A stretch of 53,617 nt of DNA from Pseudomonadota bacterium. Its GTDB lineage: Bacteria > Pseudomonadota > Alphaproteobacteria > Rhizobiales > Hyphomicrobiaceae. Location of the stretch: the NCBI GenBank assembly GCA_039183375.1, contig JBCDBQ010000001.1, positions 1 through 53,617 on the forward strand. Reading direction: 5' to 3'. This document shows positions 345-53,378 of the stretch, piece after piece. Within the stretch, counting starts at the first letter, position 1. Every line of letters begins with the position of its first letter. Below the pieces are notes generated by a model that was given only the letters and a program-made list of their open reading frames with translations, made no database searches and had not been told where the DNA came from. The position numbers were made by a program, and so were the translations under genes.

Positions 345-1262
345 TCAGTAAATCTTGTTTGCACGACGCCATGACGTCGGGGGCATCCCAAAGTGGCTTG
401 CAAATGCACGAGCAAAACTCGAAGGGTTATCATAACCAATCATCGCAGCGATTTCGGTAACTCCAACTTCCTGCGAGCTCAATTGCATAATCTGAGCGGC
501 AAACAGCAATTTCTTCCTAGTCAGGTATCGATGTGGCGGCTCACCCGTTTTCGCGGCAAATCTACGGGAAAAATGAAACCTGCTGACGCCAATAATACTC
601 GCAAGTTCATCAGTTGTTACCTTGCGCGACATATGCGCGTCGATGAAATCATCAATCTCCTGGATCTGGCGCTTAGTGAGCGGATGGATCTTGTTTGCGC
701 CACGCTCGATCTGGAGATACGCGTCGTCGCCTCTCCGCTGAAACAAACGGTGCAAGATCAAACCGGTTCCGTGAGCGCCCAGCATTCCGTCTAGGTCTTC
801 CGGCGCACGTATCATCTCAACAAGAATCTGTTCCACTAGTGGATCACGAAACAGTACAGCTGCCCTCCCGGAAATCTCCTCTCGCGAAGGCGGCGCTTTC
901 CCGACCGCGGCGAAGTAACCATCGATGACATCAGGACTTATGCCGAGGATCGCAAATTCCATTGCCGGCCATCTCCCTTCACCGTCAGATTTCGGCGTGA
1001 TGCCCATGACTCCGGGTTGCGCTCGTCCGCGCACGCGCGCTGAAGTATAGTCAGCGGCGATCTCACCATGGCCGGTAAGGCACAGATTCAAAAAAACATG
1101 ATTGAGATCGCGAACCATACCCTCCCATGCGCCGCGCTTTCCCTTCAGCAGCACAAGTTGCGCATCCTCAGCGTGGGCCATGAGACTTATGTCCATTTCG
1201 AAACGAGCTGCTTTGCTTCGGCCCACTGCCTGCAGCTCACGCGGCGATCGTGTGTTGCTCAT
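345..1262 (-). CDS. AraC/XylS-family transcriptional regulator
   Basis: 305-aa ORF. The C-terminal ~100 aa carry the double HTH typical of AraC (ELASIIGVSRFHFSRRFAAKTGEPPHRYLTRKKL ... VTEIAAMIGYDNPSSFARAFASHFGMPPTSWRR). It is divergent from the TonB-dependent receptor, as with RhrA/PchR-type siderophore regulators. Confidence 0.85.
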   Translation of the reverse strand: MSNTRSPRELQAVGRSKAARFEMDISLMAHAEDAQLVLLKGKRGAWEGMVRDLNHVFLNLCLTGHGEIAADYTSARVRGRAQPGVMGITPKSDGEGRWPAMEFAILGISPDVIDGYFAAVGKAPPSREEISGRAAVLFRDPLVEQILVEMIRAPEDLDGMLGAHGTGLILHRLFQRRGDDAYLQIERGANKIHPLTKRQIQEIDDFIDAHMSRKVTTDELASIIGVSRFHFSRRFAAKTGEPPHRYLTRKKLLFAAQIMQLSSQEVGVTEIAAMIGYDNPSSFARAFASHFGMPPTSWRRANKIY

Positions 1263-1423: not shown

Positions 1424-3529
1424 ATGTTCCGCCTCCAGCACAAAGACAAAACCGGCGCATCCTTGTCAATCGCCGTCCTCCTGGCACTTGTCGTGCTGGG
1501 GCCGCTACAGCTCAAAGCTCAGGAGGTGGTGCTCCCGGGAATAGTGATTGTCGGTGACAAGACCGGCAGAACGATCAATGAGGCCAGCCCAAGTACGACA
1601 GTTATTAGCGGCGAGGAAGCGGTGCGCCCCAGCAACATCGACATTGACAGTGCGGTGGCAACGCAGCCGAACATCCTAGCAAACGAGGGCTTCAATCTGC
1701 CCTCGATCCGAGGCGTCGACTCATTGAGCGGTGGACGACCAAGTATTACAGCTGGATCGCAGCCGAGGACTCCTCTGCTCGTTGATGGGGTGGCTTATCC
1801 TTCAAACGAGGCATCGGCGATTTCCGCACTGTCGCTCTGGGATGTTAGTACGATTGAAGTTGCTCGGGGTCCGCAGCCCACCAGCACTGGACGCAACGCA
1901 TTCGGTGGCGCGATCCGCGTTTTCACAAACGATCCAACTTTCAAGACAGAAGTTGCGACGCGTGTTGGCTACATCTCTGAGCAAGGAACAGTCAGCGGCG
2001 CCTTTATGTTCAACGCACCTGTTGTGTCGGATCAGATTGCTGTGCGTCTTGTCGGTGAAGGTAGCTTTGGCAAAAGTTATGTAGACATTGCCCCATCACT
2101 ACCCGCCGGCTTTGATCCCGAAGACGAGCGCTATGGCCGACTAAGAGGCAAGGTGCTTATCAAACCATCGACCATCGCCGGGTTGAGCGTCGTATTGTCT
2201 GTCGACCATTCCCTCCGCGAAAACCCAACTGAGGGGTTGGTGGCAGACGTCGAAAACGTGAGGATCGGTCCAAACGATGTATTTGCGTTGAGCTCCGCCT
2301 ATGAGGACCTCCGGCAGACTGTTTACCAGGCGAAATCAACTTATGAAATAAGCCGTAACTTCACGCTTGTTAGCCGGCTGGCCCATTTGGATAATGACCT
2401 TACTTTTCGCGATTCAGGCGAGCTACCGAATGCATTTGTTCCGTTTGCATTGGGCACAACGGAATTTAACAAATCTCAGATTGAAGGCGAAACATATCTC
2501 CAGTTCCGCAATATTGGTATGGTGCATCGCGGCGTCGTCGGAGTCACTCATAACACCGAGGATGAATTTGGTACAAATGATGGAACTCTGAACTTCTCAG
2601 CCGATGGTGAGATCCGCAATACGGGGGTATACGGTGAGATTGAACTGAGCGCCGATGGTACTGCACGTGGCCTATCTTTCTTGGCAGGTGGACGTCTGGA
2701 AATCGACAAGAGAGAACGATCCATCCAGGCACCAATTGGTAATCCTCTGGGCGGCTCTGATTTGAGCGAAACGGTATTTCTTCCTAAGATAGGACTTCGG
2801 TACTACGCCAGTCCGAATGCCTCATTTGGCTATACGTACTCGCAGGGCTTCCGAGCGGGTGGAACCGACTTTGATTTCACTGGACCTATTTTTGGATTTC
2901 CCCTAGTTACATCAGACTTTGACAGCGAGACCATAGACCAGCATGAGATCTTCGCTCGCGGGAGTATCCTTGGCGGTACGCTGGATCTCACAGCCACGGC
3001 TTTCTACTATACTTGGAAAGACGCCCAGGTGGCGGGTGCCGGACCTGCTGGTCTTATTGGCAACGTTCCGGTGGCGATTGGATACGGCGGTGAACTTGCT
3101 GCAGCTTACAAAATTATGCGGGATCTTTCCGTAAAAGGCGCCGTTGGTTTCACGAAGACAAAGATTACTGATGCCGGTGTCAACCTTGCATCGTTTGAGG
3201 GCAACGCCTTGCCGCGCGCACCGGAAGTCACATTGTCTGGCGGCATAGCCTGGTCGCCGTTCGAAGGTTTTACGGCGGGTATCGATGCACGCTATGTCGA
3301 CGATACAGTTTCCGGACTTGGGCAGCCAAAACTCAGCTCATATACGATTGTCGACATCTCTGCTGGTTACAAATTTGAAGCGAGCGGTTTGAATTTCAAA
3401 CTCGATGGCTTCATAAAGAATGTGTTCGATGAACGTTACCGCACATTCGCTGAACAGAGCCCTGGCTTTCTGCTGCAGAAATCTGGTCGGCCACGCACCT
3501 TTGGTTTCGCTCTTACAACACGCTACTGA
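1424..3529 (+). CDS. TonB-dependent outer-membrane receptor (siderophore type)
   Basis: 701-aa ORF with an N-terminal signal peptide (LGPLQLKAQE) and plug-domain motifs (LPSIRGVDS, IEVARGPQPTSTGRNAFGGAIRVFT). The long beta-barrel ends in ...RPRTFGFALTTRY, with the aromatic terminal residue typical of TBDRs. Confidence 0.9.
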   Translation: MFRLQHKDKTGASLSIAVLLALVVLGPLQLKAQEVVLPGIVIVGDKTGRTINEASPSTTVISGEEAVRPSNIDIDSAVATQPNILANEGFNLPSIRGVDSLSGGRPSITAGSQPRTPLLVDGVAYPSNEASAISALSLWDVSTIEVARGPQPTSTGRNAFGGAIRVFTNDPTFKTEVATRVGYISEQGTVSGAFMFNAPVVSDQIAVRLVGEGSFGKSYVDIAPSLPAGFDPEDERYGRLRGKVLIKPSTIAGLSVVLSVDHSLRENPTEGLVADVENVRIGPNDVFALSSAYEDLRQTVYQAKSTYEISRNFTLVSRLAHLDNDLTFRDSGELPNAFVPFALGTTEFNKSQIEGETYLQFRNIGMVHRGVVGVTHNTEDEFGTNDGTLNFSADGEIRNTGVYGEIELSADGTARGLSFLAGGRLEIDKRERSIQAPIGNPLGGSDLSETVFLPKIGLRYYASPNASFGYTYSQGFRAGGTDFDFTGPIFGFPLVTSDFDSETIDQHEIFARGSILGGTLDLTATAFYYTWKDAQVAGAGPAGLIGNVPVAIGYGGELAAAYKIMRDLSVKGAVGFTKTKITDAGVNLASFEGNALPRAPEVTLSGGIAWSPFEGFTAGIDARYVDDTVSGLGQPKLSSYTIVDISAGYKFEASGLNFKLDGFIKNVFDERYRTFAEQSPGFLLQKSGRPRTFGFALTTRY

Positions 3530-3625: not shown

Positions 3626-5881
3626 ATGCGATGGCGCGTGCTATGTATTGTCGGAGTGCTCTATGCAGTCCAATTCATCCCATTGTTCTTTGCACTCATG
3701 GCGTTGCCGATTGTGCTTCGCCAAGAGGGACATTCTGCAACAGTCATCGGTCTGGTCCAGCTTGCGGCTCTACCTTATATTTTCAAGTTCTTGTGGGCAC
3801 CGCTGATCGACAAATACAAACTTGGCAAAGATCGATACAAATCCTGGATTGTCTTGTTGTCTGCGCTTCACGTCAGTGGATTAATTTCGCTGTCGTTTGC
3901 CGAACCGAGCGGTGATCTGACGCTGCTCGTCGTGACGCTCGCACTAGCGATTACAGCCGTTAGCACGCAAGACGTCGCCGTTGATGCATTTGTTATCTCG
4001 CTACTGCGACCAAGCGAGCGGACAATGGGCGCTACTTTCCAGAACTTCGGCGCATATGCTGGCGCGGTGGTGGGTGGTTTCGGATTTCTATACCTATACG
4101 GCACTTTGGGTTGGCGGGCGGCGCTATTGATTCAGTCAATCATCTTCGTGCTGCCGCTCTTCACGCTGTTGCTCATTTCTGAACCGAAACGCCTCCGTGG
4201 CGCACCAGCAGTGACATTCAGAAATGCACCAAAGTTCTTTACCCAACCGCGCATCGGACCATGGCTAGCAGTGCTTGCTACCATGCGCCTGCCACTCATA
4301 GGCATTATGCTGCCTATGCGCCTGATGATGGTCGATCAGGGCATGACGACCGAGGAGATTGCGGTTTGGTTTGGCCTCTTTGCGATGAGTGCTGCTGGTG
4401 GCGCAACGGCGCTGTTCGGGCCGCTTTTGCGCAATCTCCCGCGTGTCAGAGCAATCTATATTGTCGGCCTATTCAACATCCCGGTCTTGATCGGTGTAGC
4501 GTTTGTTGCGGCAGAAATGCCGACATCAATCCGGTATGCAATTATCGTTGCATGGGTTGCTATCGCCATGACAGACATTGTCATGTTTCGCGGCGCAATG
4601 GATAAAGTTCGCCCGGAAATGCCGGGGTTCGACTTTTCCGCGCAAATTGCAATTTACATGTTGCTACCTGGGTTCTCTGACCCCATTGCGGGCCTAGTCA
4701 TGGATACCTACGGAGTGATGCCAGTATATTTCACTGCAATACCGTTGGCACTCGTTCCGTTGACAATCGTTTATTTCGGCATTGCCTCTTTTAAACAGTC
4801 GGCAACAGGCTTGGACGGCGACGCGGTCGTTTCGACGGGCACACTGCAATCCGCATCGCCGGCACGCGTCCTCGATGAGTGCCAGGTAGAATTTACAGAT
4901 CACGGCTTGACCTGCGAGAGACCTGAGCCGCATCACCTGAAAATCGAAGAGATGGGTTGCCGGGTCGATCTGCGGGCTAAAGAGCAGGCGGTCGACGTTC
5001 GGATAGAAACGCCAAACGACAACTTTATGACATTAATACGCGACGAGGTAATCGAGCATCTTGGCGAGATTGAACCAGAGACTATTTCGAGAATGAGATG
5101 GAGCGGTGGATTTCGGCCGGGCGAAATGCCTTCAAACTTCCGAATTCTACGTGCTAAGCGTCGCGTAGAGCTTTTCCCTGGCATGATCAGAGTTACGCTC
5201 GAAGGTGTGGATGTGCAAGCGTTCGCTAGAGACGGTATTCACATCAAACTAATGATGCCGCTTGAACGTGGCCGGAAACCTGTGTGGCCAGTGATTGCAG
5301 AGAATGGCAGCGTAGCGTGGCCACAGGGTGATGACCGGCTACACGCTCGAAATGTCACGATCCGTGATGTCCGACTCGATGCGCGCGAGATCGATATTGA
5401 TATCGCGCATCATGCTGGTGGCTTGATTTCAGACTGGGCTGCCCTGGACGGTGACGAGCAGGAAGTTGGTGTCATGGGTCCCGGTGGTGACCCCTATCTT
5501 CCTCAAACCAAGAACGTGGTTCTAGCAGCCGATTACACGGGGTTACCAGCTGTCGCGCGTCTGATAGAAAGCGTAAACGGGCGTGTAACCGGTCACTTGT
5601 TTGCAGCCGCTCCATCGCAAACAGCATTAGACGAGTATCTGCCTGACTCGCGCTTAATAGTTTCTGCGATCAAACCCGACGCGTTCGCCGAACAAATCAC
5701 GGAGCTTGTAAGGTCCTGTAAAGATAAGCCGGTCTCTTATGGTTGGTTCGCAGGAGAATTTGTGGCAGCCCAATCCGTGAGGAACATCTTCAGGAAGGAC
5801 TTCGGCCTGACGAAAAAAACCCAACTAAGCGTCGCCTATTGGAAAGATGGTAGCCCGGGCCACAGTTCCAGAGCAGTCTAG
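3626..5881 (+). CDS. Fusion protein: AmpG/RhtX/FptX-like MFS permease (N-terminal ~400 aa) + linker domain + siderophore-interacting (ViuB/SIP-type) FAD reductase (C-terminal ~250 aa)
   Basis: 751-aa single ORF. The N-terminus has AmpG/RhtX-like motifs (LPIVLRQEGHSATVIGLVQLAALPYIFKFLWAPLIDKY) and ~12 hydrophobic segments. The C-terminus has the SIP FAD-binding and NAD-binding pattern (MIRVTLEGVDVQAFARDGIHIKLMMP ... VSYGWFAGEFVAAQSVRNIFRKDFGLTKKTQLSVAYWKDG). Confidence 0.8.
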   Translation: MRWRVLCIVGVLYAVQFIPLFFALMALPIVLRQEGHSATVIGLVQLAALPYIFKFLWAPLIDKYKLGKDRYKSWIVLLSALHVSGLISLSFAEPSGDLTLLVVTLALAITAVSTQDVAVDAFVISLLRPSERTMGATFQNFGAYAGAVVGGFGFLYLYGTLGWRAALLIQSIIFVLPLFTLLLISEPKRLRGAPAVTFRNAPKFFTQPRIGPWLAVLATMRLPLIGIMLPMRLMMVDQGMTTEEIAVWFGLFAMSAAGGATALFGPLLRNLPRVRAIYIVGLFNIPVLIGVAFVAAEMPTSIRYAIIVAWVAIAMTDIVMFRGAMDKVRPEMPGFDFSAQIAIYMLLPGFSDPIAGLVMDTYGVMPVYFTAIPLALVPLTIVYFGIASFKQSATGLDGDAVVSTGTLQSASPARVLDECQVEFTDHGLTCERPEPHHLKIEEMGCRVDLRAKEQAVDVRIETPNDNFMTLIRDEVIEHLGEIEPETISRMRWSGGFRPGEMPSNFRILRAKRRVELFPGMIRVTLEGVDVQAFARDGIHIKLMMPLERGRKPVWPVIAENGSVAWPQGDDRLHARNVTIRDVRLDAREIDIDIAHHAGGLISDWAALDGDEQEVGVMGPGGDPYLPQTKNVVLAADYTGLPAVARLIESVNGRVTGHLFAAAPSQTALDEYLPDSRLIVSAIKPDAFAEQITELVRSCKDKPVSYGWFAGEFVAAQSVRNIFRKDFGLTKKTQLSVAYWKDGSPGHSSRAV

Positions 5882-6601
5882 TCGCCGAACGACAAGCAGG
5901 ATTCTCCGAATTTTGACTTGTACTAAAGGTCTTAACACCGACGTTTGGACGAGGCCGAAAGTGGCGCTTCTGTTTCAAAATGAAACTAAGCACATTGCTT
6001 CCGCTTTTGAAGGCGTTGCGATATTCCGTTGGTCAGTTGATGTTACATTTCAATTACGATCTCAAATTACTCTAATTTGATTATCGCGTCAGTCACGGCA
6101 GTTGACGATGCTGCGCTTGCTCAGGTCCGCTTTTGGGAGCGCGTCTTGTTGTTGCGATGCGAGACCGCAAATTCCCGGAGTTCCGAGTCGGGTCATAACC
6201 GGCTAAACCCTGTCCGAGTAAATCGGGTCCGCTATTACCCTTCCAAGCAGACATGACTGCGACGTGGATTTTCGAGCAGGAGAGAAAATGTTGACGCCAC
6301 TTCGATACTCTTTTGCGTCGTACGATGGAAACTACATACAGCCCTCTCATCGTAGGGCATTTGGATTAGCTAGCCTTCGACACTGATACAATATTACCGG
6401 TATGTGGGTAGGACTGATCCGTCAGATTGCGCGGTACGCTGCTGTTCGTGAGATGCTTAGCAATTAAGCTATCAAGTCCGGCGAGCCGGCAACCGACCTG
6501 CATTCGCGCGATCAAGCAAAAAAATTCAGAGCGGTGTGGACATGGTGCGGACATAGATAAGTCAGCCCGCCGTCTGAAACCACTTAACTCATTGAAATAT
6601 A

Positions 6602-6646
6602 TGGTGCCGCAAGAGGGACTCGAACCCCCAACCCCCTGATTACAAA
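6602..6646 (-). pseudogene. 3' half of a tRNA (anticodon loop UUUGUAA = UGU, Thr-like) lacking the 5' half; probable att-site remnant
   Basis: The minus strand reads TTTGTAA-TCAGG-GGGTT-GGGGG-TTCGAGT-CCCTC-TTGCGGC-A-CCA. That is anticodon loop, 3' anticodon stem, variable loop, a well-formed T-arm, the 3' acceptor strand, discriminator and CCA. No complementary 5' acceptor strand (GCCGCAA-like) or D-arm lies upstream, so the gene is truncated at the anticodon stem. Confidence 0.6.
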
Positions 6647-6839
6647 TCCGTGTGCTGCCGCCATTTCAAGTTATTGTCTTGACTCGTGTTCTTGAGTGAA
6701 ACCCAGGAAAGATAATAGGTTCAGAGTATTATATGTCACTACTTGTTGTCCATACTGTCCATTCAAGCCATACTGTCTCGTCGATTTATACCGGCAAAAA
6801 TACCGGCAAGAATGCTGGGTCACTTCTGAGGGACGCATT

Positions 6840-8171
6840 GTGCAGCCGCTGCCAGCCAAAGATAAGTCAATCGCCGCCGCGAAGTTCCTCGGGCGCGGCA
6901 AGGAAACCGAGTACCGGATCGAAGGTAATCCTGGTCTGATTCTTGTTTGCCAGAGGCCCAGAGCAGATGGCACGGTCAACAAGGTCTGGCGCTGCTACTA
7001 CTCGGTAACAAAGGACGGAAGGCAGCGACTGCGTAAGAAGCGTCTCGGCAGGTACCCATACCTGTCGCTCACGAAAGCGCGCCTGCTTTGTGCGGAGGTG
7101 CGGCAGGCCGTTGACCAGGGCATTGACGTTGTCGAGCAGGGTCGGAGATTGAAGGTTGCTGAAGAGCAGGCAAGTCTTACTTTCAAAGAGCTCGTCGACG
7201 ACTACATCGCCATTCGGCGCGCCGTCGCACAACCCATACGGACACTCGATGAAATTGAGCGTGCTCTGCGTGCGTCAGCGGTGCCCATGCTGGGGCATCT
7301 GAATCCTATAGACATCTCTGCCGAGGATGTAGAGGCGTGCATCGATGTTCTGAAAGACAAGAACCACTTGGGCATGGCGCGTCATCTGCTCAGCTATATT
7401 GGGACCTTATTCAACTATGCAATTAGATCTACGGAACTGGCGGATAAATACGGGCTCAAGGTCAATCCAGCGACACATGTTGGGCGGGCGCTTACGCGCG
7501 GCGAGAGAGGCAAATACGGAAAAAGTGAACCTGGAGAGCGTGCGCTCACGGACGCAGAGATAGTCGAACTCTGGTCAGCTTTCGGCAGGTCACTCGCCGA
7601 ACAGAGAACGAAACTGATGATTTGGATCTTGCTACTGACTGGACAGAGGCCGTCTCAGGTCCGAAAGATGACAATCGATGAGCTAGATTTGGGAGCTGCT
7701 TCTGGCGCTGAGTGGAGCCTTGCAGGTAGTAGAACAAAGAACAAGAAGCCACATGTCGTGCCGCTTGTTCCCCGCGTTGTTGAGTTGCTTAAAGCGCAGA
7801 TTGGAGATCGAGAATCAGGACCTGTCTTTCCTGATGAGACAGGACAATTTTTGCATAAGGACTCAATACGCGGCGCGCTAGATAGGATGTTTGATCATGG
7901 TAATCTGACTTGCCCGGAATTCACACCCAGAGATCTTCGTCGGACAGTTGCGTCGGGAATGGCTCGTCTTCGAGTCATTAAAGAGATCCGTGATCGCGTC
8001 TTGCACCACACAGATTCTTCGGTTGGTGCAACGCACTATAACCGTCACGACTATCTGAGTGAGAAGCGTGAGGCGCTCGAGACGTGGACCACGCACGTTT
8101 ATTCACTACTGGAAAAACAAGCTTATGCAACGCGGACCCAGTCAGGCCAGGATATCTGGAGCTCACATTAG
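6840..8171 (+). CDS. int: Tyrosine recombinase / phage-type integrase (P4-like, N-terminal DUF4102-type arm-binding domain)
   Basis: The arm-domain pattern (LPAKDKSIAAAKF..EYRIEGNPGLILVCQRP..KVWRCYYSV...LGRYPYLSLTKARLLCAEVRQAVDQGID) is followed by catalytic-domain motifs (LLLTGQRPSQV; TPRDLRRTVASGMA; VLHHTDSSVGATHYNR). The ORF is open from GTG 6696, but GTG 6840 is preceded by GAGGGA at 6 nt spacing and fits the family N-terminus. The start is uncertain. Confidence 0.9.
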   Translation: MQPLPAKDKSIAAAKFLGRGKETEYRIEGNPGLILVCQRPRADGTVNKVWRCYYSVTKDGRQRLRKKRLGRYPYLSLTKARLLCAEVRQAVDQGIDVVEQGRRLKVAEEQASLTFKELVDDYIAIRRAVAQPIRTLDEIERALRASAVPMLGHLNPIDISAEDVEACIDVLKDKNHLGMARHLLSYIGTLFNYAIRSTELADKYGLKVNPATHVGRALTRGERGKYGKSEPGERALTDAEIVELWSAFGRSLAEQRTKLMIWILLLTGQRPSQVRKMTIDELDLGAASGAEWSLAGSRTKNKKPHVVPLVPRVVELLKAQIGDRESGPVFPDETGQFLHKDSIRGALDRMFDHGNLTCPEFTPRDLRRTVASGMARLRVIKEIRDRVLHHTDSSVGATHYNRHDYLSEKREALETWTTHVYSLLEKQAYATRTQSGQDIWSSH

Positions 8172-8278
8172 TGATTGGCAATTGAAATGCTCTGGCAAAA
8201 CATTGATTTGTCGGAGAAGAGTTTTCAGTCCAGACGAATCTGACTAACTGAAAAAAAATTGGGATCTGTTGCTATCCT

Positions 8279-8378
8279 CTGACTGACCTCGAGCCGGAGC
8301 TGACTGACCTCGAGCCGGAGCTGACTGACCTCGAGCCGGAGCTGACTGACCTCGAGCCGGAGCTGACTGACCTCGAGC
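8279..8378. repeat. Perfect tandem repeat, 21-bp unit CTGACTGACCTCGAGCCGGAG x 4.8
   Basis: Units at 8279-8299, 8300-8320, 8321-8341 and 8342-8362, plus a 16-nt partial unit at 8363-8378, are all identical. Each unit contains the CTCGAG palindrome. No start codon or >=60-aa ORF covers the array. Confidence 0.95.
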
Positions 8379-8867
8379 AGAAAGCCTAGCTGGTCGTCTG
8401 GATGTATGCTCCAACCATATCACTGTTGGCTTGGATGACGATATGTTGGTCCATGATCCCTGATCGCCATGCTAGACGGTTTGCTGATGAACCAATGAAC
8501 TAGGATGGAAGGGTTGTTCCTTCTACTTGAGGACATTCTTCATCGTGACCTTTGCGTTGACGGCTAAGACGGTGTGCCCGTTAAATACAATCTATGTGCC
8601 GAAGCCGCGAAACACAAAGTGAGCTTATCGCGTCTGCTTTTAGCGGTGCATAGCAAACGTCGAGCGCGAAAGTGGCGCGTAACAGCTTTTGACCTCGTCA
8701 AAGCCTTTGATTGGAGCAGCTGTTTCAAGGGCATAGGTGATGATGGTGCCTTCTGTCAGTGCTAGCGACATAGGCGCGGTGCTGACAAGGCAATATAATT
8801 TTGACTAGTCTGTAATGTAGACCATCAGGATTGGGTGAGGCGGAACAGGGTCCATAAGAGGAAATTG

Positions 8868-9311
8868 ATGAGCACAGTAAAGAGAGTTCTGGCCCAGAAG
8901 AGTGGCGCCCTGATCCATGTTCGTTCCGGCGACATGCTAATCGAAGCCTTGCGCCAGATGCGCGATAACCGGATCCGGGCGGTGCTGGTAATCGATGATG
9001 GCCTGCTGGTCGGTATCGTGACCCTGGGTGATTGCGCCATCAAAGTGTTGCTGCCCGGGCTCGATGCGAAGCAGACGCCCGTGGACCAAGTCATGACTGG
9101 CGACCCGATGACGGTTAAGCCCGACGATCCGCTGGACGGCTGCATGGCACTAATGGCAGAGCGCGGTTATCGCCACCTTCCAGTGGTGGACGCGGACAAG
9201 GTTGTGGGCGTGATCTCGATTGGAGAAGTCGTCAAGAACATGATCCGCGATTTGGAGCTAAACGTGAGCGACCTGATGGGCCACATCATGGCGGACGGTC
9301 CTGGGGGCTGA
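8868..9311 (+). CDS. CBS-domain pair protein
   Basis: Two CBS motifs are present (IRAVLVIDDGLLVGIVTLGDCAIK ... YRHLPVVDADKVVGVISIGEVVKNM). ATG 8868 is preceded by AAGAGGA. The track ORF starts at an upstream GTG (8835). Confidence 0.8.
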   Translation: MSTVKRVLAQKSGALIHVRSGDMLIEALRQMRDNRIRAVLVIDDGLLVGIVTLGDCAIKVLLPGLDAKQTPVDQVMTGDPMTVKPDDPLDGCMALMAERGYRHLPVVDADKVVGVISIGEVVKNMIRDLELNVSDLMGHIMADGPGG

Positions 9312-10056
9312 CAGACAATCGGTTATGTTGTTCCCGCTTGTCGGTGATCGTTTGGCTGTCAGTAAAGAGTGCGGCGGATGCCGAGACCTCTGACTCACCG
9401 CTATCGGACGCCGCCGTCTTGCTGAGTGATTTCTTGTGTGATTACTGCTGGTGGCACTTTGGTCCTCTCCATGTCTTTGATCGCCTGAACCAAGGCACAT
9501 TGCGCGCTAGGAGATTATTTATGAAGAAGTTGCGGCTCTACAAGCGTTTCAGTTCCGGGTTTAAGGATGAAGCCTAGAAGGATCGACTTTGCATGTGACG
9601 TAAATACCGCGCCCGCGGGTCTACGCACTCGTTTCGCGGCGCGGACGACCCATAAACCAGATGGTGACAGGCGGATTGCATTCCGAAATTTCTGTGGGTG
9701 CCAAGAAAGCGCCGTTCAGCCCAATAATTACCCATAGCACTGGAGGGAAGGCCGTGCTCCGAGCCTATGCGCGTGGCAGAGAGCTTCAGATCGTCTTAAG
9801 TTCAAGCATTGATCTGTCTTGCCAATCAGCTGCTTCCGGTTGTGCCTTCGATTGTTGGATCTAATGCGTTTCATCCGATAACGGGAAGACCTGGACGACT
9901 GGGCCGTCGTCGGTGGACAATACAAGGATTGTCTCATTGTTCTAACACGCCAGCGCGAGGTCAGCGCTACGAGGCGAGTGAAGGTTCGCAATAGAGGATT
10001 AAACAAGTACCTTCCTGTCTCTCAGTCGATACATTGGAAATAGCGATCAGCAATCG

Positions 10057-10086
10057 AAAAAATGCCCGTCACGAGCGTGACGGGCA
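10057..10086 (-). terminator. Rho-independent terminator (minus strand) with no annotated gene upstream
   Basis: The minus strand reads TGCCCGTCAC-GCTC-GTGACGGGCA followed by TTTTTT (10062..10057). A second hairpin, GTTTGCT-N10-AGCAAAC, lies at 10101-10124. Confidence 0.6.
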
Positions 10087-10179
10087 ATCAGGATGTCGAG
10101 GTTTGCTACCTGGGGAGAGCAAACTCAATGACAAGATACCGTCGTGATTCGAATTGTCCATTTTGATTGATTAAACGAG

Positions 10180-10197
10180 TGTACAAAAATATGTACA
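10180..10197. promoter_or_regulatory. PpsR/CrtJ-type operator (TGT-N12-ACA)
   Basis: TGTACAAAAATATGTACA is an exact TGT-N12-ACA in an AT-rich context, 181 nt upstream of tspO. Confidence 0.55.
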
Positions 10198-10377
10198 TGA
10201 TTTCTTTTCGAGGAATCTGAGCCAGCACGTGTTTCATGCTTCGACGAACCTGTAACTCCGCATATGGCATTGTCGGCGTGGGCCTCGCAGGTTAGAGGTA
10301 GGCTGTTGGCTTCTTGATATTATTCAGCATCGCTTAGACTAAACTCTCTGCTGATACGAAAAGGGATATGGCTAACG

Positions 10378-10845
10378 ATGGAAGCTTACCTAAGCCTATT
10401 TCCGTTTCTAGTAGCTGTATTTGGTGCAGCTCTAACTGGAGCCTTCTTCATGCCTGGTGAGTGGTACAAATCGCTCAAAAAGCCAGGCTGGACCCCACCC
10501 GACTGGTTGTTCGCGCCTGCGTGGAGCGTGCTCTATATCGCGATTGCAGTTGCGGGATGGCTCGTCTGGCAGAACGAAGGGTGGGGCACTGCACTCATCG
10601 TTTGGAGCGCCAATATGGTCTTCAATGCAGCCTGGTCCTGGCTCATGTTCGGCCGACGACAGATTGGCATCGCTCTGTTTGATGCGCTGGCAATGCTTCT
10701 AACGATCATCGCATTTGTGGCTCTCACTCGAAGTACGACGCCGGTCGCCGCGATGCTCTTCTTGCCATACCTTGCTTGGGTTGCTTTTGCGTCAGTGCTC
10801 AATTACTCGATTTTTACAATGAACCACGGCCGGTCTAGCAATTGA
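10378..10845 (+). CDS. tspO: Tryptophan-rich sensory protein TspO (CrtK/MBR family)
   Basis: 155 aa with 5 TM segments and family motifs (WYKSLKKPGWTPPDWLFAPAWSVLYIAIAVAGWLVW; Trp-rich AAWSWLMF). tspO is a classical PGC member. Confidence 0.92.
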   Translation: MEAYLSLFPFLVAVFGAALTGAFFMPGEWYKSLKKPGWTPPDWLFAPAWSVLYIAIAVAGWLVWQNEGWGTALIVWSANMVFNAAWSWLMFGRRQIGIALFDALAMLLTIIAFVALTRSTTPVAAMLFLPYLAWVAFASVLNYSIFTMNHGRSSN

Positions 10846-11027
10846 CCCAGCAATAGAGCTTCTAGAGTAATGACTGTTCCGCTGCAGATCCAGACCGGGT
10901 GCCTGATAGGCGATCTTATGCAGGTTCGAGTTCCTGTTCTTCTGCGACCAGGACTTTTGCGAAAGCAGTTTCGGTCTCAGTATGACGCCCTAAACTCTGA
11001 CAAGTGTGAAGCGCAGCTTTGCCAGAG

Positions 11028-13211
11028 ATGACAAGCGTGTCTGACAGCCTGGTTCAGTATATTTGGCGGTTTAGATTTCTAACGCTGGGTTTTGCTGCAG
11101 TTCTTTTCTGCCTCGGCGGCATGGGAATCCAGCGGGTTATTTATGATCCGCACGTCCTCACGTACTTCGACCGAACATCTCCAGAGTTTCTAGAGTTCGA
11201 GAAGACGGAACAGCTGTTCGGACGCTCTAACGAGATTGTCTTTCTCGTTAAGGCCAAACAAGGCACGGTCTTCGATCCTCAAGTGTTCTCGGCGCTGCCG
11301 GTTCTCGTTCGGCGGGCGGCTGAGATCCCTGGAGTTGAAGTAGTAAGCTCAATCCTCGATGTCGCCAACGTGGAAGGACAAAGCAGTCGCGCTGTCGAGC
11401 GCGTCATTGCAAAAAGCAGCGAGACGTTTCGCGACTTCCTGTCAAAGGATGCGCAAGTCACTGCCATTGCGGCATTCGTTCCGCGCAAAATCGCAGGCGA
11501 TGCCAATGTCAGCGTTTCGGCTCGGGCGGCGCGCAACATTGCGACCAGCGTTCGGAACACATTTCCTGGCGTCGATATTCTACTAACCGGCCGGATAATA
11601 ATCGAAGACGCTTTTCAGTCGGAAGGCCAGAACGACATAATTGGACCACCAGGCATTTCGCTTCTAGTGACTACAGGCTTGTTATTGATAGCACTGAGTT
11701 CCTGGACTGCCACGGCTGCGCTCTTAACGGTGATTTTTGTTTCAACAACAGCCACCTTGGGAGCCGTTGGGTGGATTGGGATGTCGCTAAACGGGATATC
11801 GAGTTCTGCCCCCTCTGTATTAGTGGGTCTGGCTGTTGCGACTGGCGTCCATATCGTCCTAGCCTGGCAGGATTCGTTGCGTCGTGGAGCCACGCGCGAA
11901 GAGGCTGTTGCGCGGGCCGTTGCCTCAAATGCGTGGCCAGTGGTCTTGTCAGTGGCGACAACAATTGCCTCGTTTTTGTGTTTGAACTTGGCAACATCCC
12001 CACCGTTTCGCCAACTCGGAAATGTCGTGGCCTTCGGCCTCACCATAACGCTTTTACTCTGCTTCACACTTCTACCACTGCTACTGCTCATTTTGCCCAA
12101 GAGCCTGGCCACACGGCGGCGCTTCTTCGAGGTCATCATGGCGCGCCTCGGTGGCTTTGTTGCCGGCCACAAGGTCTTCTGGGCGGCGACCTGCGCTGCA
12201 ACCACGGCAGTGGCCATCTTTGGGATCAGCCAGATTACATACGATGATACCTTCAGCCATTATTTTGATGAGCGTTATGAGGTGCGTCGGGCAACTGATC
12301 TGTTCGAGGACAAGCTGACCGGAACGACAATCATATCGGCTACAGTTGCAGCTTCAGCACCAGGCTCAGCCAACTCGGAGGTTCATCGGGCGGAGGTGGC
12401 CGCGTTGGCGCAGTGGCTGATGGCACAGCCCAAGGTCGTCAAGGTCGCCACGCCCTTTTCCGGCCGGCCATCAAACCCTGGAATGGGGATGCTTGATCGT
12501 ACGACAAGCCACTCGCGGATAGAGGTCGTCTTGCGCGGTGCCAGCGCTGCGGAAACATTGGCTTTGGCTGCTAGGACTAGATCTTATGCGTCGCAGGTGG
12601 TGGATCGCCAAGTTGTTGTTACCGGCATGCCAATCCTATCGGCAAAGCTGTCGCTAGATAGTGCGCGCAGTATGATGATTGCAACAACCTTGGCGCTGTT
12701 AGTAATTTCACTCATTCTCGTGATCGCTTTGCGTAGCGTCAGCCTGGGACTGGTGAGCCTGGTCCCGAACCTCTTACCATTGCTGATGGCATTTGGCATC
12801 TGGGGTATGTTTATTGGCGAAGTGTCGTTTGCAGCAACGGTCGTTGCCGCTCTCACGTTTGGAATTGTCGTTGACGATACCGTTCATATCGTCGTCAAAT
12901 ATCAAGCGCTACGGAAATGTGGCCAAGAGCCCAACCGCGCGCTTGTTTCGAGTTTTCGCAGTGTTGGTGTTGCAGTATTCACTACAACTTTTGCCATTGG
13001 CACAGGCTTCGCAACGTTTGCGTTGTCGGGCTTCCTAGTTAATCAGCACTTTGGCCTGTTGTCGGCGCTGACACTGAGTGCGGCGCTGCTGGCAGATCTG
13101 CTATTCCTACCCCCGCTGCTGCTTTGGGTCGACAAACTCAGTCAATCCAATCCGAAACAAACCCGCTCGCCAACGGGTTCGATCGGGCATGATGACGCCG
13201 AGACACCATAG
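11028..13211 (+). CDS. MMPL/RND-superfamily exporter (COG1033-like, two 6-TM bundles with periplasmic loops)
   Basis: ~727 aa with duplicated architecture: TM1, a large loop and 5 TMs, twice. It has an SSD/MMPL-like motif (ALTFGIVVDDTVHIVVKY). The track ORF starts at TTG 11019; ATG 11028 is used here. Confidence 0.75.
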   Translation: MTSVSDSLVQYIWRFRFLTLGFAAVLFCLGGMGIQRVIYDPHVLTYFDRTSPEFLEFEKTEQLFGRSNEIVFLVKAKQGTVFDPQVFSALPVLVRRAAEIPGVEVVSSILDVANVEGQSSRAVERVIAKSSETFRDFLSKDAQVTAIAAFVPRKIAGDANVSVSARAARNIATSVRNTFPGVDILLTGRIIIEDAFQSEGQNDIIGPPGISLLVTTGLLLIALSSWTATAALLTVIFVSTTATLGAVGWIGMSLNGISSSAPSVLVGLAVATGVHIVLAWQDSLRRGATREEAVARAVASNAWPVVLSVATTIASFLCLNLATSPPFRQLGNVVAFGLTITLLLCFTLLPLLLLILPKSLATRRRFFEVIMARLGGFVAGHKVFWAATCAATTAVAIFGISQITYDDTFSHYFDERYEVRRATDLFEDKLTGTTIISATVAASAPGSANSEVHRAEVAALAQWLMAQPKVVKVATPFSGRPSNPGMGMLDRTTSHSRIEVVLRGASAAETLALAARTRSYASQVVDRQVVVTGMPILSAKLSLDSARSMMIATTLALLVISLILVIALRSVSLGLVSLVPNLLPLLMAFGIWGMFIGEVSFAATVVAALTFGIVVDDTVHIVVKYQALRKCGQEPNRALVSSFRSVGVAVFTTTFAIGTGFATFALSGFLVNQHFGLLSALTLSAALLADLLFLPPLLLWVDKLSQSNPKQTRSPTGSIGHDDAETP

Positions 13212-13238
13212 CTGCCCTGATATCAATCGCAATCATGC

Positions 13239-13412
13239 TTACACCATCAGGGTCCAAATAAGAACCGCGGTTCCCAGCACTCCAACGACCAGCCAGATTA
13301 TGATCTCTCTTAGAAAGCGCTTCTTGAGGGTTTGCGCGAGCTCTCCACTGCTTTGATTTGAGCTCTTCGGCTTAGCACTTTTCAACTTGCGGACAATGCC
13401 AGGCTTGGACAC
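13239..13412 (-). CDS. Candidate small tail-anchored membrane protein (57 aa), immediately downstream of GT2
   Basis: It is below the 60-aa track cutoff. A GTG start is preceded by GAAGGA. The sequence MSKPGIVRKLKSAKPKSSNQSSGELAQTLKKRFLREIIIWLVVGVLGTAVLIWTLMV has a basic N-terminus and a C-terminal TM helix. No homology was recognised. Confidence 0.3.
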   Translation of the reverse strand: MSKPGIVRKLKSAKPKSSNQSSGELAQTLKKRFLREIIIWLVVGVLGTAVLIWTLMV

Positions 13413-13423
13413 AATGAGATCCT

Positions 13424-14137
13424 TCAGTTGCTTGACTGGCTATTGCCGGCCATTGCTTTTCCATAGTAGAGACGGTAGAGCCACCAGGCAGGGCAGCCCA
13501 AAAGAAAAGCAACAAGTAGCAGTCCGTTGATTAGCTGTGTTCTCAGGACCCCGTGCGTTTGATATCGTCTCGCTGAAGTTTTTACCGTAGTCTTGAGCTT
13601 GATAAATCGCCCCACTGAACGAAGCCGTTTTCGGAGCGCGACATCCTCAAAGAGTGGGAGCTGAGGCATGCCGCCGACTGCCTCAAGGGCGTCACGTCTC
13701 GCGAACATGGCTTGATCACCGAACGTTGTTAGTACGCTGTCGAACTGGCTGAACCAGGCGTATGCACGCAAGGCAATGCTCGGCTGGTCGAATGCAAGCG
13801 TGAAGCATCCCCCGACAACGCCACACTCGGACATAGCTTGCCGAATAGAGTCGCCTGCGTCCGTTGGAAGATCGCTGTCAGCATGGATGATTGCAATGAT
13901 TGGTTTTGTGCTTGCTGCAATACCGCTGGCCAACTGCTGCCCGCGTCCACGTTGAGAAAGTATGAAAGTGACATCCTTGAACGATGTCGCAATGTCCCTG
14001 GTGTCATCTGAGCTTCCACCATCGCAAACGATGATCTCGTCAAAACCTGCATGCCGCACATTGTCGATTGCGGATTCCAGACGACGTCCCTCGTTGAGTG
14101 TCGGAATGACAGCAGTGACAAGTAGGTGGCTGTCCAT
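13424..14137 (-). CDS. Family-2 glycosyltransferase (TIGR04283-like small GT2)
   Basis: The N-terminal GT-A pattern is VIPTLNEGRRLESAIDNV....EIIVCDGGSSDDTRDIA ... GRGQQLASGIAAS...IIAIIHADSDLP, and there is a C-terminal hydrophobic helix. Confidence 0.8.
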   Translation of the reverse strand: MDSHLLVTAVIPTLNEGRRLESAIDNVRHAGFDEIIVCDGGSSDDTRDIATSFKDVTFILSQRGRGQQLASGIAASTKPIIAIIHADSDLPTDAGDSIRQAMSECGVVGGCFTLAFDQPSIALRAYAWFSQFDSVLTTFGDQAMFARRDALEAVGGMPQLPLFEDVALRKRLRSVGRFIKLKTTVKTSARRYQTHGVLRTQLINGLLLVAFLLGCPAWWLYRLYYGKAMAGNSQSSN

Positions 14138-14140
14138 CAA

Positions 14141-18755: not shown

Positions 18756-18773
18756 TGTAAATTTATATTGACA
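18756..18773. promoter_or_regulatory. PpsR/CrtJ operator (TGT-N12-ACA) in the crtD/crtF divergent region
   Basis: TGTAAATTTATATTGACA matches the consensus exactly. It lies 81 nt from the crtD start and 89 nt from the crtF start. Confidence 0.75.
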
Positions 18774-19991: not shown

Positions 19992-20009
19992 TGTAATTAT
20001 TAATTGACA
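19992..20009. promoter_or_regulatory. PpsR/CrtJ operator 1 upstream of bchC
   Basis: TGTAATTATTAATTGACA is an exact TGT-N12-ACA. Confidence 0.75.
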
Positions 20010-40935: not shown

Positions 40936-42508
40936 CGTAGAGTGTCTCCAGCGTAATGCAGGCAATTCCGTTGTCTTTCGCGAACGTCTCCGTATTCCGC
41001 CGGGCCTTGCCGCGCACGAAGAATGGTATTCGCTTGAGTTCTTGTTCAGCGTCTGCAGCCCAGCTTATGCTGTTTGCAGGCTGCGTGATTTTGGGAGCAT
41101 CAGCGCAAGGCGCTGGCGAAGCTGCTACCGTGAGATCGTCAGGCCGGGATACGTTGGGCTGATGGGCAGCGAGATGTGATGGGATAGTTTCATTGTTGAA
41201 CTCGAAGTCTTCGCGGAACATTTGGAGCAGATGCTCCTCAAGTCCCATCATCAACGGATGCACCCAGGAATCGAAGATAACATTAGCGCCTTCAAACCCC
41301 ATCTGTGGAGCGTAGCGCGCTGGGAAGTCTTGAACATGGACAGGTGAGGAGATCACAGCACAGCCGATACCATGTCGTTTGGCAATGTGGCGCTCCATCT
41401 GCGATCCCAGCACCAACTCCGGCTGCAAATCTTTGATGCAATCTTCCACTTCGAGATAGTCATCGGTGATCAAAGCTTCGACATTGTACTTGCGCGCCGC
41501 CTCGCGCACTTCCCGTGCAGTCTCTCGCGTATAGGTGCCTAGCCCGGCGATAGTGAAGCCCATTTCTTCGTGGGCGACGCGGGCGGCTGCAACGACATGC
41601 GAGCCATCACCAAAGATGAATACACGTTTGCCGTTGAGATATGTGCTGTCGACTGATCGCGCATACCACGGCAACCGCAAATCGCGCTCGAGCTCAATCA
41701 GGTTGACTTCGATGCCCGCTAGGCTAGCGACTTCATGGATGAAATCACGGGTCGCCCCGACACCGATCGGGATTACTTTCGTAAACGGCTGCTGGAAAGT
41801 CCGTTCCAACCAGGCTGCAGTGGTATGGGCAATCTCCGGATAGAGAACGACGTTGAAGTCGGCCTCGGGAATGCGAGCAATGTCAGCTGGCGATGCACCG
41901 AGCGGGGCAACTACGTTAATCTCACCGCCCAGCCGTCTAAGCAGTCGCGATACTTCTTCGACGTCATCGCGGTGACGGAAACCAAGAGCCGTTGCACCCA
42001 ATATGTTGCACGAGAACTTGCTCTCGGGCCTTTCGGTGTGGCCGGCAATGTGACGGCCATTGTCATTTGCTTGACTGAGCGTACGAACCACACGGTAGAA
42101 GGTTTCAGAGGCGCCCCAGTTTTCCTTTTTTTGATAGGACGGTAGCTCCAGAGGCACGACTGGCACGGGAAGGTTCAAGGCTTCTGTCAATCCGCCAGGG
42201 TCGTCTTGAATAAGCTCAGCAGTACACGAGGCTCCGACCAGCATCAGTTGCGGATCGAAACGCTCATAGGCGTCCCGTGCGGCCTGCTGAAAAAGCTCTG
42301 CAGTGTCACTGCCAAGATCGCGCGCCTGGAACGTTGTGTACGTGACAGGCGGACGATGGTCACGGCGCTCAATCATTGTGAAGAGAAGATCTGCGTACGT
42401 GTCTCCTTGCGGCGCATGCAGAACGTAATGGACGTCCTTCATTGCTGTCGCGATGCGCATTGCACCGACGTGGGGAGGGCCCTCATATGTCCAGACCGCC
42501 AGCTTCAA
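40910..42508 (-). CDS. bchB: Light-independent protochlorophyllide reductase subunit B
   Basis: [48 protein letters not shown] is the canonical BchB/ChlB N-terminus. Confidence 0.96.
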
Positions 42509-42512
42509 AGGG

Positions 42513-44341
<1,829 letters not shown>

Positions 44342-44457
44342 CGGAGATCCCCTTGCAGAGCGTTGCTTTAAGAAGTTTTTTTGGCGCTGATGGTGGAAAC
44401 AGCAGCACGCTAAATTCCCAAGCTCTCAACGGCAGTTTATGCGTCGCTCAATAAGAG

Positions 44458-44475
44458 TGTCAATTATATTTGACA
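44458..44475. promoter_or_regulatory. PpsR/CrtJ operator in the bchF/ppaA divergent region
   Basis: TGTCAATTATATTTGACA is an exact TGT-N12-ACA with extended symmetry (TGTCAA..TTGACA). Confidence 0.75.
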
Positions 44476-44482
44476 TATTTTT

Positions 44483-44500
44483 CGTCTTAAATATTTTACA
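44483..44500. promoter_or_regulatory. Degenerate second PpsR-type site (CGT-N12-ACA), 7 bp from the first
   Basis: CGTCTTAAATATTTTACA has one half-site mismatch. The tandem spacing resembles the bchC pair. Confidence 0.35.
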
Positions 44501-44725
44501 AGTGATCCAATCGAAATCCTATTTCGTTTAATGTCGGTTGGGAAAGTCGTGCGACAATTTGGTTTGCGCGCACCTCTGTGACATGGTTGTGTACGGACAA
44601 CCTCATAAAAATGGTCGGTTAGCGATCAGCGGTAGGTGGGACATGGAAACGCTAAGTGACGGCAATGCACGTCTGGCTTTGACTGCCAATCGCCCGGTCA
44701 ACTTTTACAGACGGGCAGCTGCATA

Positions 44726-45625
44726 ATGGATGATCCAAAAAGCAATAGCTCGCTCACATTAGCAACACGCGAGGGACGTCGGGCTTTATGCGATGACGAT
44801 TTGCGCATTACTGACGAGGCCGGCCTTGAACGCGAGGAAAGCGTTCCATCACGCCTTACAACCGTTATTAACGGTGAGATCATTCCGCGTTTGTTTGTAC
44901 TTAACAATCAGCAAGTCGTGGCCGACCAGTCAGTCCACGAGGCGGGCCTGCGCCTGGAAGATTACATCGTTGAATATGCCCGAATCATCTTAGAGGATGA
45001 GAGCAATCGTGCGTTTACGTTTGTGGAGCAGCTGCACGCCGATGGCCACCAACTGGATCGGATTATGATGGATCTGTTGGCGCCGACAGCGCGCCAACTC
45101 GGCGTTTGGTGGGAGGAAGACCGAATTGATTTCGTTGACGTGACAATTGGTACTTCGCGTCTAAAGCAGGTTCTTCATCATTTTAGGCCATCCAGACAGG
45201 CTCGGGTCTACGCTGAACCCAACCCGAAGCGCATTCTGTTGCTGCCGACACCCCAGGAAACGCATACCTTCGGGCTGCTTGTCATTGCTGAGATATTTCG
45301 CAAATCGGGCTGGGAAGTAGGTGGCGGTCACGTCATGGCAGATGACGAAATGAACAAACTTTTGTCAGAGGAACCCTGGGATATTGTCGGGTTCTCCCTT
45401 GCAAACGCAAGGTTAATGGACAAATTGGCTAACGCTATTGCAAGTGCGCGCTGGCAGTCTAAGAATAAGTCAGTCAAGATCTTGGTCGGTGGGCGTGCAT
45501 TTAGTAAAGACCTTAAGCTGGATGAGAAGTTGGGGGCTGACTTTGTCGTTTCGGACCCCGCCCAGGCTGTGAAGCTGGGCGAGGCTTTGCTTTCTGATCA
45601 ACGTGGAAGATCTCTGGTGCAGTGA
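44726..45625 (+). CDS. ppaA: Cobalamin-binding antirepressor PpaA/AerR
   Basis: C-terminal B12-binding domain pattern (ILLLPTPQETHTFGLLVIAEIFRKSGWEVGGG...DIVGFSLAN...KILVGG). It lies immediately upstream of ppsR. Confidence 0.85.
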   Translation: MDDPKSNSSLTLATREGRRALCDDDLRITDEAGLEREESVPSRLTTVINGEIIPRLFVLNNQQVVADQSVHEAGLRLEDYIVEYARIILEDESNRAFTFVEQLHADGHQLDRIMMDLLAPTARQLGVWWEEDRIDFVDVTIGTSRLKQVLHHFRPSRQARVYAEPNPKRILLLPTPQETHTFGLLVIAEIFRKSGWEVGGGHVMADDEMNKLLSEEPWDIVGFSLANARLMDKLANAIASARWQSKNKSVKILVGGRAFSKDLKLDEKLGADFVVSDPAQAVKLGEALLSDQRGRSLVQ

Positions 45626-45703
45626 TACAGTACTCTGTGAAATGGCAGCTGAGTTCAGTTTCCAAAACTTCATCCCCTTGAGCCGTGAGAGGCTAGTACA
45701 GCC

Positions 45704-47119: not shown

Positions 47120-47277
47120 CGAACTTTCAATCGTATAGCTTCCAGCACATTATTTGTGACAAGAGTGTTCAATGCGCGAGCGGGTTAGCTCGGGCACAAT
47201 GGCCGCCCCTGAGTATTCATGGCAAAGGTACGCCCGCTTGCGCGGCAACCTGGGGAGGCCAAAAAAACTAGAAGCGG

Positions 47278-47295
47278 TGTAAACTTATATTGACA
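47278..47295. promoter_or_regulatory. PpsR/CrtJ operator upstream of bchG
   Basis: TGTAAACTTATATTGACA is an exact TGT-N12-ACA. It overlaps a second inverted repeat, TGACA-N8-TGTCA (47291-47308). Confidence 0.7.
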
Positions 47296-47352
47296 GTTTG
47301 ATATGTCAAAAATACGCTTGTCTGAACACTTGTATGTTTGGGGCAATCGTCG

Positions 47353-50845: not shown

Positions 50846-50950
50846 CGTTGGATGGTCGAGACGGCTGTACCCAGGGCTCCCAGGTTCGGTTATGTCTTGG
50901 CAAGCTCGTGGATTACTGCCCAATAGTGCGTGCTGGCTTTGGTTCTCAAC

Positions 50951-51220
50951 ATGCAGCAACTCATTGAATCCGGACGAATAGCCGATATAATCCTCGCGCT
51001 CATTGCATTGGAGATTGTTTGCTTCGCTTTGCTTCGACGCCTCGCTTGGCGAGCGCCGAAGCTGGTTGACCTTTTAGGGACATTGCTGTCGGGGCTGTTC
51101 TTGATAGCTGCCTTGCGAAGTGGTCTGGCCGGTGCGGATTGGACCGTGACCGCAAGCTTTTTGATGGCGGCACTACTGTCACATCTCTTCGATCTTTGGC
51201 GCCGCTGGCCGAGCAGCTAG
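50951..51220 (+). CDS. Small membrane protein (89 aa, ~3 TM), unknown function
   Basis: Hydrophobic segments (IADIILALIALEIVCFALL; LLGTLLSGLFLIAAL; TVTASFLMAALLSHLF). No homology was recognised. The track start is GTG 50930. Confidence 0.4.
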   Translation: MQQLIESGRIADIILALIALEIVCFALLRRLAWRAPKLVDLLGTLLSGLFLIAALRSGLAGADWTVTASFLMAALLSHLFDLWRRWPSS

Positions 51221-51248
51221 AACGACCCCGACCAGAGCCAGTAACCCA

Positions 51249-53210: not shown

Positions 53211-53286
53211 AGCCGTCGCCTCTAGATAAAGTGCCACTCAAGTCCGAGAGTGCGCTCATGGCAATTAGAGAACGATCCAGCTAGAA

Positions 53287-53320
53287 TGTAAATAATATTT
53301 TACGTCTAATAATTTTGACA
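53287..53320. promoter_or_regulatory. Two overlapping degenerate PpsR-like half-matches in the dxs/bchI divergent region
   Basis: TGTAAATAATATTTTACG (TGT-N12-ACG) overlaps CGTCTAATAATTTTGACA (CGT-N12-ACA). Together they read TGT-N28-ACA and are AT-rich like the other sites. Confidence 0.3.
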
Positions 53321-53378
53321 CTATGCTTTACTGAGCACGTTCTTGAGCCGATAGAGATTCCGATCGAGGTTGCAGGTT

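Follow-up and report, generated by a model that had tools for sequence, protein, structure and literature searches.

A tRNA-Thr(UGU) integration junction with a P4-like integrase beside the photosynthesis gene cluster of a Hyphomicrobiaceae bacterium

Is a bacterial photosynthesis gene cluster that lies next to an integrase and a piece of a tRNA gene the cargo of an integrative element, or does it simply happen to be the neighbor of one? The question is raised by a stretch of DNA from a Hyphomicrobiaceae bacterium (contig JBCDBQ010000001.1), in which the 3' part of a tRNA-Thr(UGU) gene and an intact P4-like tyrosine integrase gene precede a large photosynthesis cluster. The window in what follows is the whole 53,617-nt stretch, and all coordinates refer to it. 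A first-pass annotation had suggested that the cluster was carried by an island bounded by the tRNA fragment. If this were true, the locus would supply a concrete mechanism, an integrase with its attachment (att) site, for the horizontal spread of bacteriochlorophyll phototrophy in marine bacteria. However, an integrase and a tRNA scar near a gene cluster do not prove that the cluster is mobile. As described below, the tRNA fragment and the integrase form a true attR-type junction, made by a P4-like integrase that targets tRNA genes, and the proposal that the cluster is element cargo is not supported. We consider it probable, without being certain of it, that the junction is the truncated or rearranged end of a tRNA-Thr-specific P4-like element, a 2-kb remnant of which abuts a resident photosynthesis cluster.

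The tRNA-Thr fragment and its integrase

The junction consists of the following features.

6585-6601, minus strand: native 3' trailer of the tRNA-Thr gene, on the chromosomal side of the junction
6602-6648, minus strand: 3' fragment of tRNA-Thr(UGU), tRNA positions 30-76 (G30 to A76; anticodon stem/loop to CCA), the attR-type core
6649-6839, plus strand: arm of the element between core and integrase (a spacer of 190 bp), with short tandem motifs
6840-8171, plus strand: intact P4-like (DUF4102-type) tyrosine integrase of 443 aa, identified with Pfam

The first-pass annotation had described a tRNA 3' half without a 5' half on the minus strand, ending at 6646; the fragment is indeed present and extends to 6648, for a length of 47 nt. 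All of these nucleotides (47/47, window 6648-6602) are identical to intact tRNA-Thr(UGU) genes in four genome loci (L001-L004), both by alignment and by blastn, and the identity ends abruptly at 6649. In 596 Gb of genomes, the 45-nt stretch that begins at 6602 is matched exactly at only four places, each of them an intact tRNA-Thr(UGU) gene from Filomicrobium or from Hyphomicrobiaceae metagenome-assembled genomes (MAGs), with one match per genome. None of 100 shuffled sequences produced a match. ARAGORN detected no intact tRNA in the whole window, and an Rfam scan of 5800-10500 (E <= 1) returned only a spurious miRNA, the half gene going unreported by the tRNA model.

The 17 nt that follow the CCA match the trailer of the intact tRNA-Thr gene in L004, and the trailer in L003 is matched largely. 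Because the repeats of complete elements of this integrase family extend only 0-4 nt past the end of the tRNA, the trailer match would represent orthologous chromosome rather than element DNA, and the left side of the fragment therefore resembles the native downstream flank of the gene. By these matches the host is probably related to the Hyphomicrobiaceae. The flanks of the four recovered tRNA-Thr loci have no genes in common with the window, and neither side of the junction is syntenic with them. The 3' side of the tRNA-Thr(UGU) gene directly bears tyrosine integrases unrelated to that of the window in two of the four Hyphomicrobiaceae genomes (L001, 5707-7240; L003, 1246-2471); one of these integrases carries DUF6538 at its N-terminus, and one extends over the tRNA end. 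The tRNA-Thr(UGU) gene is an integration hotspot for several integrase families.

The integrase of the window had first been called P4-type, and its domains bear this out. It contains Arm-DNA-bind_3 (PF13356), Phage_int_M (PF22022) and Phage_integrase (PF00589) domains in Pfam, the last with E = 1.4e-16 and the other two over their cut-offs; the NCBIfam model PRK09692 gives a weak match. The gene is transcribed away from the truncated end of the tRNA, and it is full length, its GTG start at 6840 lining up with the start of the homologues. The catalytic residues R270, K300, R367, H390 and Y400 are kept and all invariant family columns are retained (alignment A3); the histidine of the HxxR motif is an arginine in the window and a histidine or lysine in the relatives. 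Among 5.8 billion proteins the closest homologue is 49% identical, and the phage and plasmid collections contain only distant matches (<=31% identity).

The arm between the core and the integrase contains two short tandem motifs detected with Tandem Repeats Finder, TGTCCATAC in 3.4 copies at 6747-6777 and ATACCGGCAAAA in 2.2 copies at 6788-6813. An 11-12-bp tandem RYRCCGGSRA motif occurs in two to three copies at -54 to -27 of the integrase start, not only in the window (6788-6813) but also in L102 (170-205), L006 (~9960-9985), L005 (~9962-9985) and L098 (~9938-9962). We predict that the arm motifs are probably arm-type or operator sites. An ACTGTC-containing repeat is also present further upstream of the RYRCCGGSRA motif; the homologues that share the motifs are 40-48% identical to the window integrase.

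The nearest relatives of the integrase are 40-49% identical, and four of them have readable context. All four (40-48% identity) display the same layout, namely a tRNA 3' fragment on the minus strand, 150-200 bp, and the integrase on the plus strand. The tRNAs are as follows.

L102: tRNA Thr-UGU; the contig begins within the fragment
L006: tRNA Thr-UGU
L005: tRNA Lys-CUU
L098-L101: tRNA Pro-CGG

Both ends are preserved in 11 complete elements of the wider family (25-31% identity) among IMG/VR loci. Their order is fragment (minus), integrase (plus), element and intact tRNA (minus), and they are bounded by exact direct repeats of 32-53 nt that correspond to the 3' part of the tRNA. Thus, the polarity assumed by the first-pass annotation, with element DNA on the integrase side of the fragment, is that of the family. 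The genes that follow the integrase are AlpA and Terminase_4 in L098, and ParA-like and VapE-like genes in L102. These loci document a subfamily of tRNA-Thr(UGU)-specific P4-like integrases with a consistent layout, in which the integrase adjoins the displaced fragment. As a separate observation, three independent assemblies of the Hyphomicrobium aestuarii-like element (L098-L101; contigs of 23.80-23.87 kb) stop at almost the same place, ~13 kb downstream of the integrase; this shared end point would fit a repeat, such as an att or tRNA copy, that breaks the assembly there.

In its form, the junction is a textbook case of integration into a tRNA gene at the anticodon loop. P4-like tyrosine-integrase islands are said, in work by Williams in 2002, to integrate into the 3' part of tRNA genes at an anticodon-loop sublocation, and we take the window element to be a P4-like (DUF4102 / Arm-DNA-bind_3) island of this sublocation. 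It resembles such islands in its domain architecture, in the adjacency of integrase and att, and in a repeat reaching from the anticodon stem-loop as far as the CCA (47 nt in the window, 32-53 nt in the complete relatives); moreover, like satellites, its relatives encode AlpA, VapE and a small terminase. It differs in that only a single att end accompanies the integrase in the window, where a partner repeat and accessory element genes are both missing. The integrase of E. coli P4 and CP4-57 adjoins the intact tRNA, whereas in the family of the window it lies beside the displaced fragment.

From the integrase to the photosynthesis cluster

The DNA that separates the integrase from the first cluster-linked genes contains the following.

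8172-8651: window-specific non-coding DNA after the integrase, ending at the homology breakpoint with relatives
8279-8378: perfect tandem repeat, 21 nt x 4.8, 100% identical
8652-10012, plus strand: CBS-gene block (CBS gene and conserved spacer), common to L008-L013, which have no integrase there, and absent from L007
8835-9311, plus strand: CBS-pair gene
10013-10845, plus strand: left edge of the block common to all close relatives; L007 homology begins at 10013
10180-10197: TGT-N12-ACA palindrome (PpsR-type), read from the letters
10378-10845, plus strand: tspO

The perfect repeat array, the lone CBS gene, the PpsR box and tspO are all present, at or near the places first given for them. The accompanying statement that ~1 kb lacks a convincing gene is correct in that 9312-10377 has no Pfam-recognisable open reading frame (ORF), but this interval is ~74% conserved at the nucleotide level in relatives, and an 86-aa gene is called there. 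The first-pass annotation had also named one outcome that would confine the element to a small island, a second copy of the 45-nt repeat at ~8.2-10.3 kb. We looked for it, and no repeat is there, which rules out a short island that a second repeat would close at 8.2-10.3 kb. Across the window as a whole, no stretch of the fragment longer than 11 nt recurs, and neither a tRNA 5' half nor a degenerate copy is present.

The relatives of the window are the most informative source on this region. Marine metagenome contigs (L008-L013) are ~84% identical to the window at the nucleotide level through at least 14686. Their homology begins at 8652 (L008, L010) or ~8737 (L011, L012), and to the left of these breakpoints the two pairs carry two different, unrelated sequences. 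In the MAG contig L007, the genes left of 10013 are of the ilvD/edd family, GntR and an FMN-dehydrogenase. No integrase, 21-nt repeat or tRNA is present at the junction in L007-L013. Therefore, everything from 8652 onward is common to relatives that lack the integrase, and the point at which the photosynthesis cluster meets its left flank varies within this lineage, with at least three left contexts other than that of the window. Judged from these comparisons, only 6649-8651 is window-specific. Within it, 8172-8651 has no similarity to any locus retrieved for comparison, and the tandem-repeat unit is absent from IMG/VR.

Other results point in the same direction. The MMPL and dxs proteins of relatives (89% and 96% identical, respectively) are present in the same protein collection whose best integrase is 49% identical, and so the integrase was not co-inherited with the cluster. 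The integrase and att module does not accompany the cluster in the relatives, and no empty site, i.e., an intact tRNA, was recovered among them. Element-type genes do not follow the integrase either: ORFs in 8059-10006 have no Pfam match, and tblastx found no remnants of the genes of related elements anywhere in the window. These observations weigh against the photosynthesis cluster as cargo.

Composition had been proposed as a further check and reveals no step between the left flank and the cluster. Tetranucleotide correlations between the left flank and cluster segments are 0.76-0.83, compared with 0.75-0.86 among cluster segments, and GC content at third codon positions (GC3) is uniform. 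Only ~5.5-10 kb is roughly two standard deviations low in 2-kb windows, and this stretch is rich in non-coding DNA. The GC3 of the CBS gene itself is 0.74, whereas all other genes measured lie at 0.53-0.65; L008-L012 have the CBS gene and L007 lacks it. Several of the metagenome contigs end within 1 kb of the CBS/tspO breakpoints.

At the other end, the photosynthesis cluster runs past the window, which stops inside bchI (53238-53617). Two contigs, L016 and L017, are 91% identical to the window over 41267-53617, and in them the cluster continues for 9.6 kb (L016 1-9832) with bchI, bchD, bchO, a DUF3422 gene, crtE, a fatty-acid-desaturase-family gene, crtY, a 92-aa ORF and hemF. There is no tRNA in this syntenic extension. 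Neither crtI nor crtB was seen in the window or in the extension. When the hemF of the relative was used to search metagenome loci, 80 were returned, and none had cluster genes. A more distant relative has ordinary genes at the border of the cluster, and neither a tRNA nor an integrase there.

Readings of the junction

What was observed of the junction, of the integrase family and its layout, and of relatives that lack the module can be joined in the following way. The P4-like integrase would recombine the chromosomal gene with a copy of the 3'-terminal 47 nt of tRNA-Thr(UGU) carried by the element. This would restore an intact tRNA at one end of the element, and the displaced native 3' half would remain beside the integrase at the other, distal (attR-type) end. 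Of the element, this genome would retain only the 2-kb integrase end (6649-8651); a later deletion or rearrangement that broke the DNA near 8651/8652 may have removed or relocated the rest, along with the link to the intact tRNA. Beyond the breakpoint, the CBS-tspO-photosynthesis block would belong to the resident DNA of the lineage and would only be adjacent to the scar. The comparison with relatives argues for a cluster older than the integrase module.

Several points weigh against a truncated end. There is no right-hand boundary of a short island, whether tRNA, repeat or degenerate copy, and so the truncation is an inference rather than an observation. Pristine sequence in the integrase ORF, the 47-nt core, the arm motifs and the tandem repeat alike suggests a recent or still active element and not an old scar. 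The complete elements are 8.0-11.1 kb in size, a range that is bounded above by the 10-kb flanks examined. The closest homologues (L005, L006, L098, L102) have no intact tRNA in the 6-10 kb available downstream of their integrases, and therefore large elements may exist in this subfamily. Finally, the left extents of the relatives are at most 715 nt, except in L007, so that an integrase further to the left is possible in them.

Another explanation is that the fragment is the element's own attP copy, or that it travelled together with the integrase, and that the module, possibly with the siderophore-uptake genes to its left, arrived in another island, a plasmid or a recombined segment. We regard this as unlikely, and it is with the same reserve that we view its corollary that the junction would say nothing about the chromosomal tRNA-Thr locus. 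In its favor are the lack of synteny of both junction sides with the four recovered tRNA-Thr loci and the fact that the window could be extrachromosomal. The unrelated integrases 3' of the intact tRNA-Thr in L001 and L003 also fit, because mosaic arrays are plausible at so busy a hotspot. However, the trailer match to L004 and L003 beyond the CCA, where family repeats reach at most 4 nt, favors a true chromosomal attR. In addition, none of the window ORFs encodes replication, partition or conjugation functions, and in composition the left flank does not differ from the rest of the window.

The reading with the largest consequences is a large integrative photosynthesis island, in which everything from 6649 through the cluster lies between the fragment and an intact tRNA-Thr(UGU) beyond the window; we consider it improbable. 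Because the cluster continues for 9.6 kb without a tRNA, an island that contains it would be at least 57 kb. In this form, which we judge equally doubtful, the cluster would cover at least 53 kb from tspO to hemF (including the bchIDO-crtE-crtY-hemF extension), the host would be a marine Hyphomicrobiaceae-like bacterium, and the integrase could excise and transfer the whole.

Some of the evidence does fit this picture. The polarity is right, and the rule in the family is that the DNA on the integrase side extends to the intact tRNA. There is no intervening repeat copy in 47 kb, and the integrase and att arm are intact. The tRNA-Thr(UGU) gene is apparently single-copy in relatives, and an intact copy must therefore exist somewhere in this genome. 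Relatives differ in the left junction of the cluster block, as would be expected for a mosaic island. On the other side are the relatives that have the same cluster without an orthologue of the integrase and with other DNA at the junction, the uniform composition of cluster and left flank, the tRNA-free extension in the 91%-identical relative and the ordinary borders of the cluster in the more distant one. Likewise, no excisionase, replication or transfer genes are present in 8.2-53.6 kb.

Two known systems bear on this reading. Plasmid- or chromid-borne photosynthesis clusters have reportedly been described in Rhodobacteraceae (Liu et al. in 2019). They are likewise a proposed route for the horizontal transfer of a whole cluster, but the window has no genes of the kind that plasmids use for replication or partition, and the plasmid and phage matches of its integrase are distant, as noted above. 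In Bradyrhizobium cosmicum, a chromosomal photosynthesis cluster is flanked by a tRNA and its partial duplicate, which was read as a hallmark of a genomic island (PMC7656271). This precedent resembles the window in that an alphaproteobacterial photosynthesis cluster lies beside a partial tRNA copy; it differs in that the tRNA and the partial copy both flank the cluster there, while the partial copy alone is seen here. Since that case is already published, even a large island would be a variant of something known. Such an island would supply the recombinase that the Bradyrhizobium observation lacks, and it would be an integrase-driven route by which phototrophy moves between chromosomes.

The last explanation, that the match has nothing to do with integration and reflects chance or a decayed tRNA pseudogene, is scarcely credible: MAFFT does produce a loose, gapped alignment between the tRNA 5' half and the 30 nt upstream of the fragment, but full identity over 47 nt followed by an abrupt break is unlike uniform decay (the break rules out a decayed pseudogene), four homologous integrases have a like fragment at the same distance, and shuffles give no matches.

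Genes on either side of the junction

To the left of the truncated end favored here, the flank contains three genes.

345-1262, minus strand: AraC-type regulator
1424-3529: TonB-dependent receptor
3626-5881: major facilitator superfamily (MFS) transporter fused to a siderophore-interacting reductase (MFS-SIP)

The last of these is a single ORF of 751 aa that combines an RhtX/FptX-type MFS siderophore transporter with FAD_binding_9 and a SIP reductase, and it adjoins the TonB-dependent receptor and AraC regulator. A gene-free stretch of ~720 bp separates the end of MFS-SIP (5881) from the tRNA piece.

To the right, tspO is followed by an MMPL/HpnN-like transporter and a GT2 glycosyltransferase, and then by the photosynthesis genes in the order crtC/D/F, bchCXYZ, pufBALM, hemA, puhE, acsF, puhCBA, lhaA, bchMLHBNF, ppaA, ppsR, bchG, a pucC-like gene, bchP and dxs. 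The transporter, of the RND type, and the glycosyltransferase occupy 11019-14140 between tspO and crtC, and this position is kept in close relatives. In more distant genomes, the MMPL homologue is found outside any photosynthesis cluster, and once beside an amine-oxidase (crtI/D-like) gene (L014). These more distant homologues (L014, L015 and L183) have no linkage to a photosynthesis cluster and are uninformative. Three further PpsR-box-like palindromes, of the TGTAA-N8-TGACA type, surfaced as a direct-repeat family. They are at 18756-18773, 19992-20009 and 47278-47295, in the crtD/crtF, crtF/bchC and ppsR/bchG intergenic regions.

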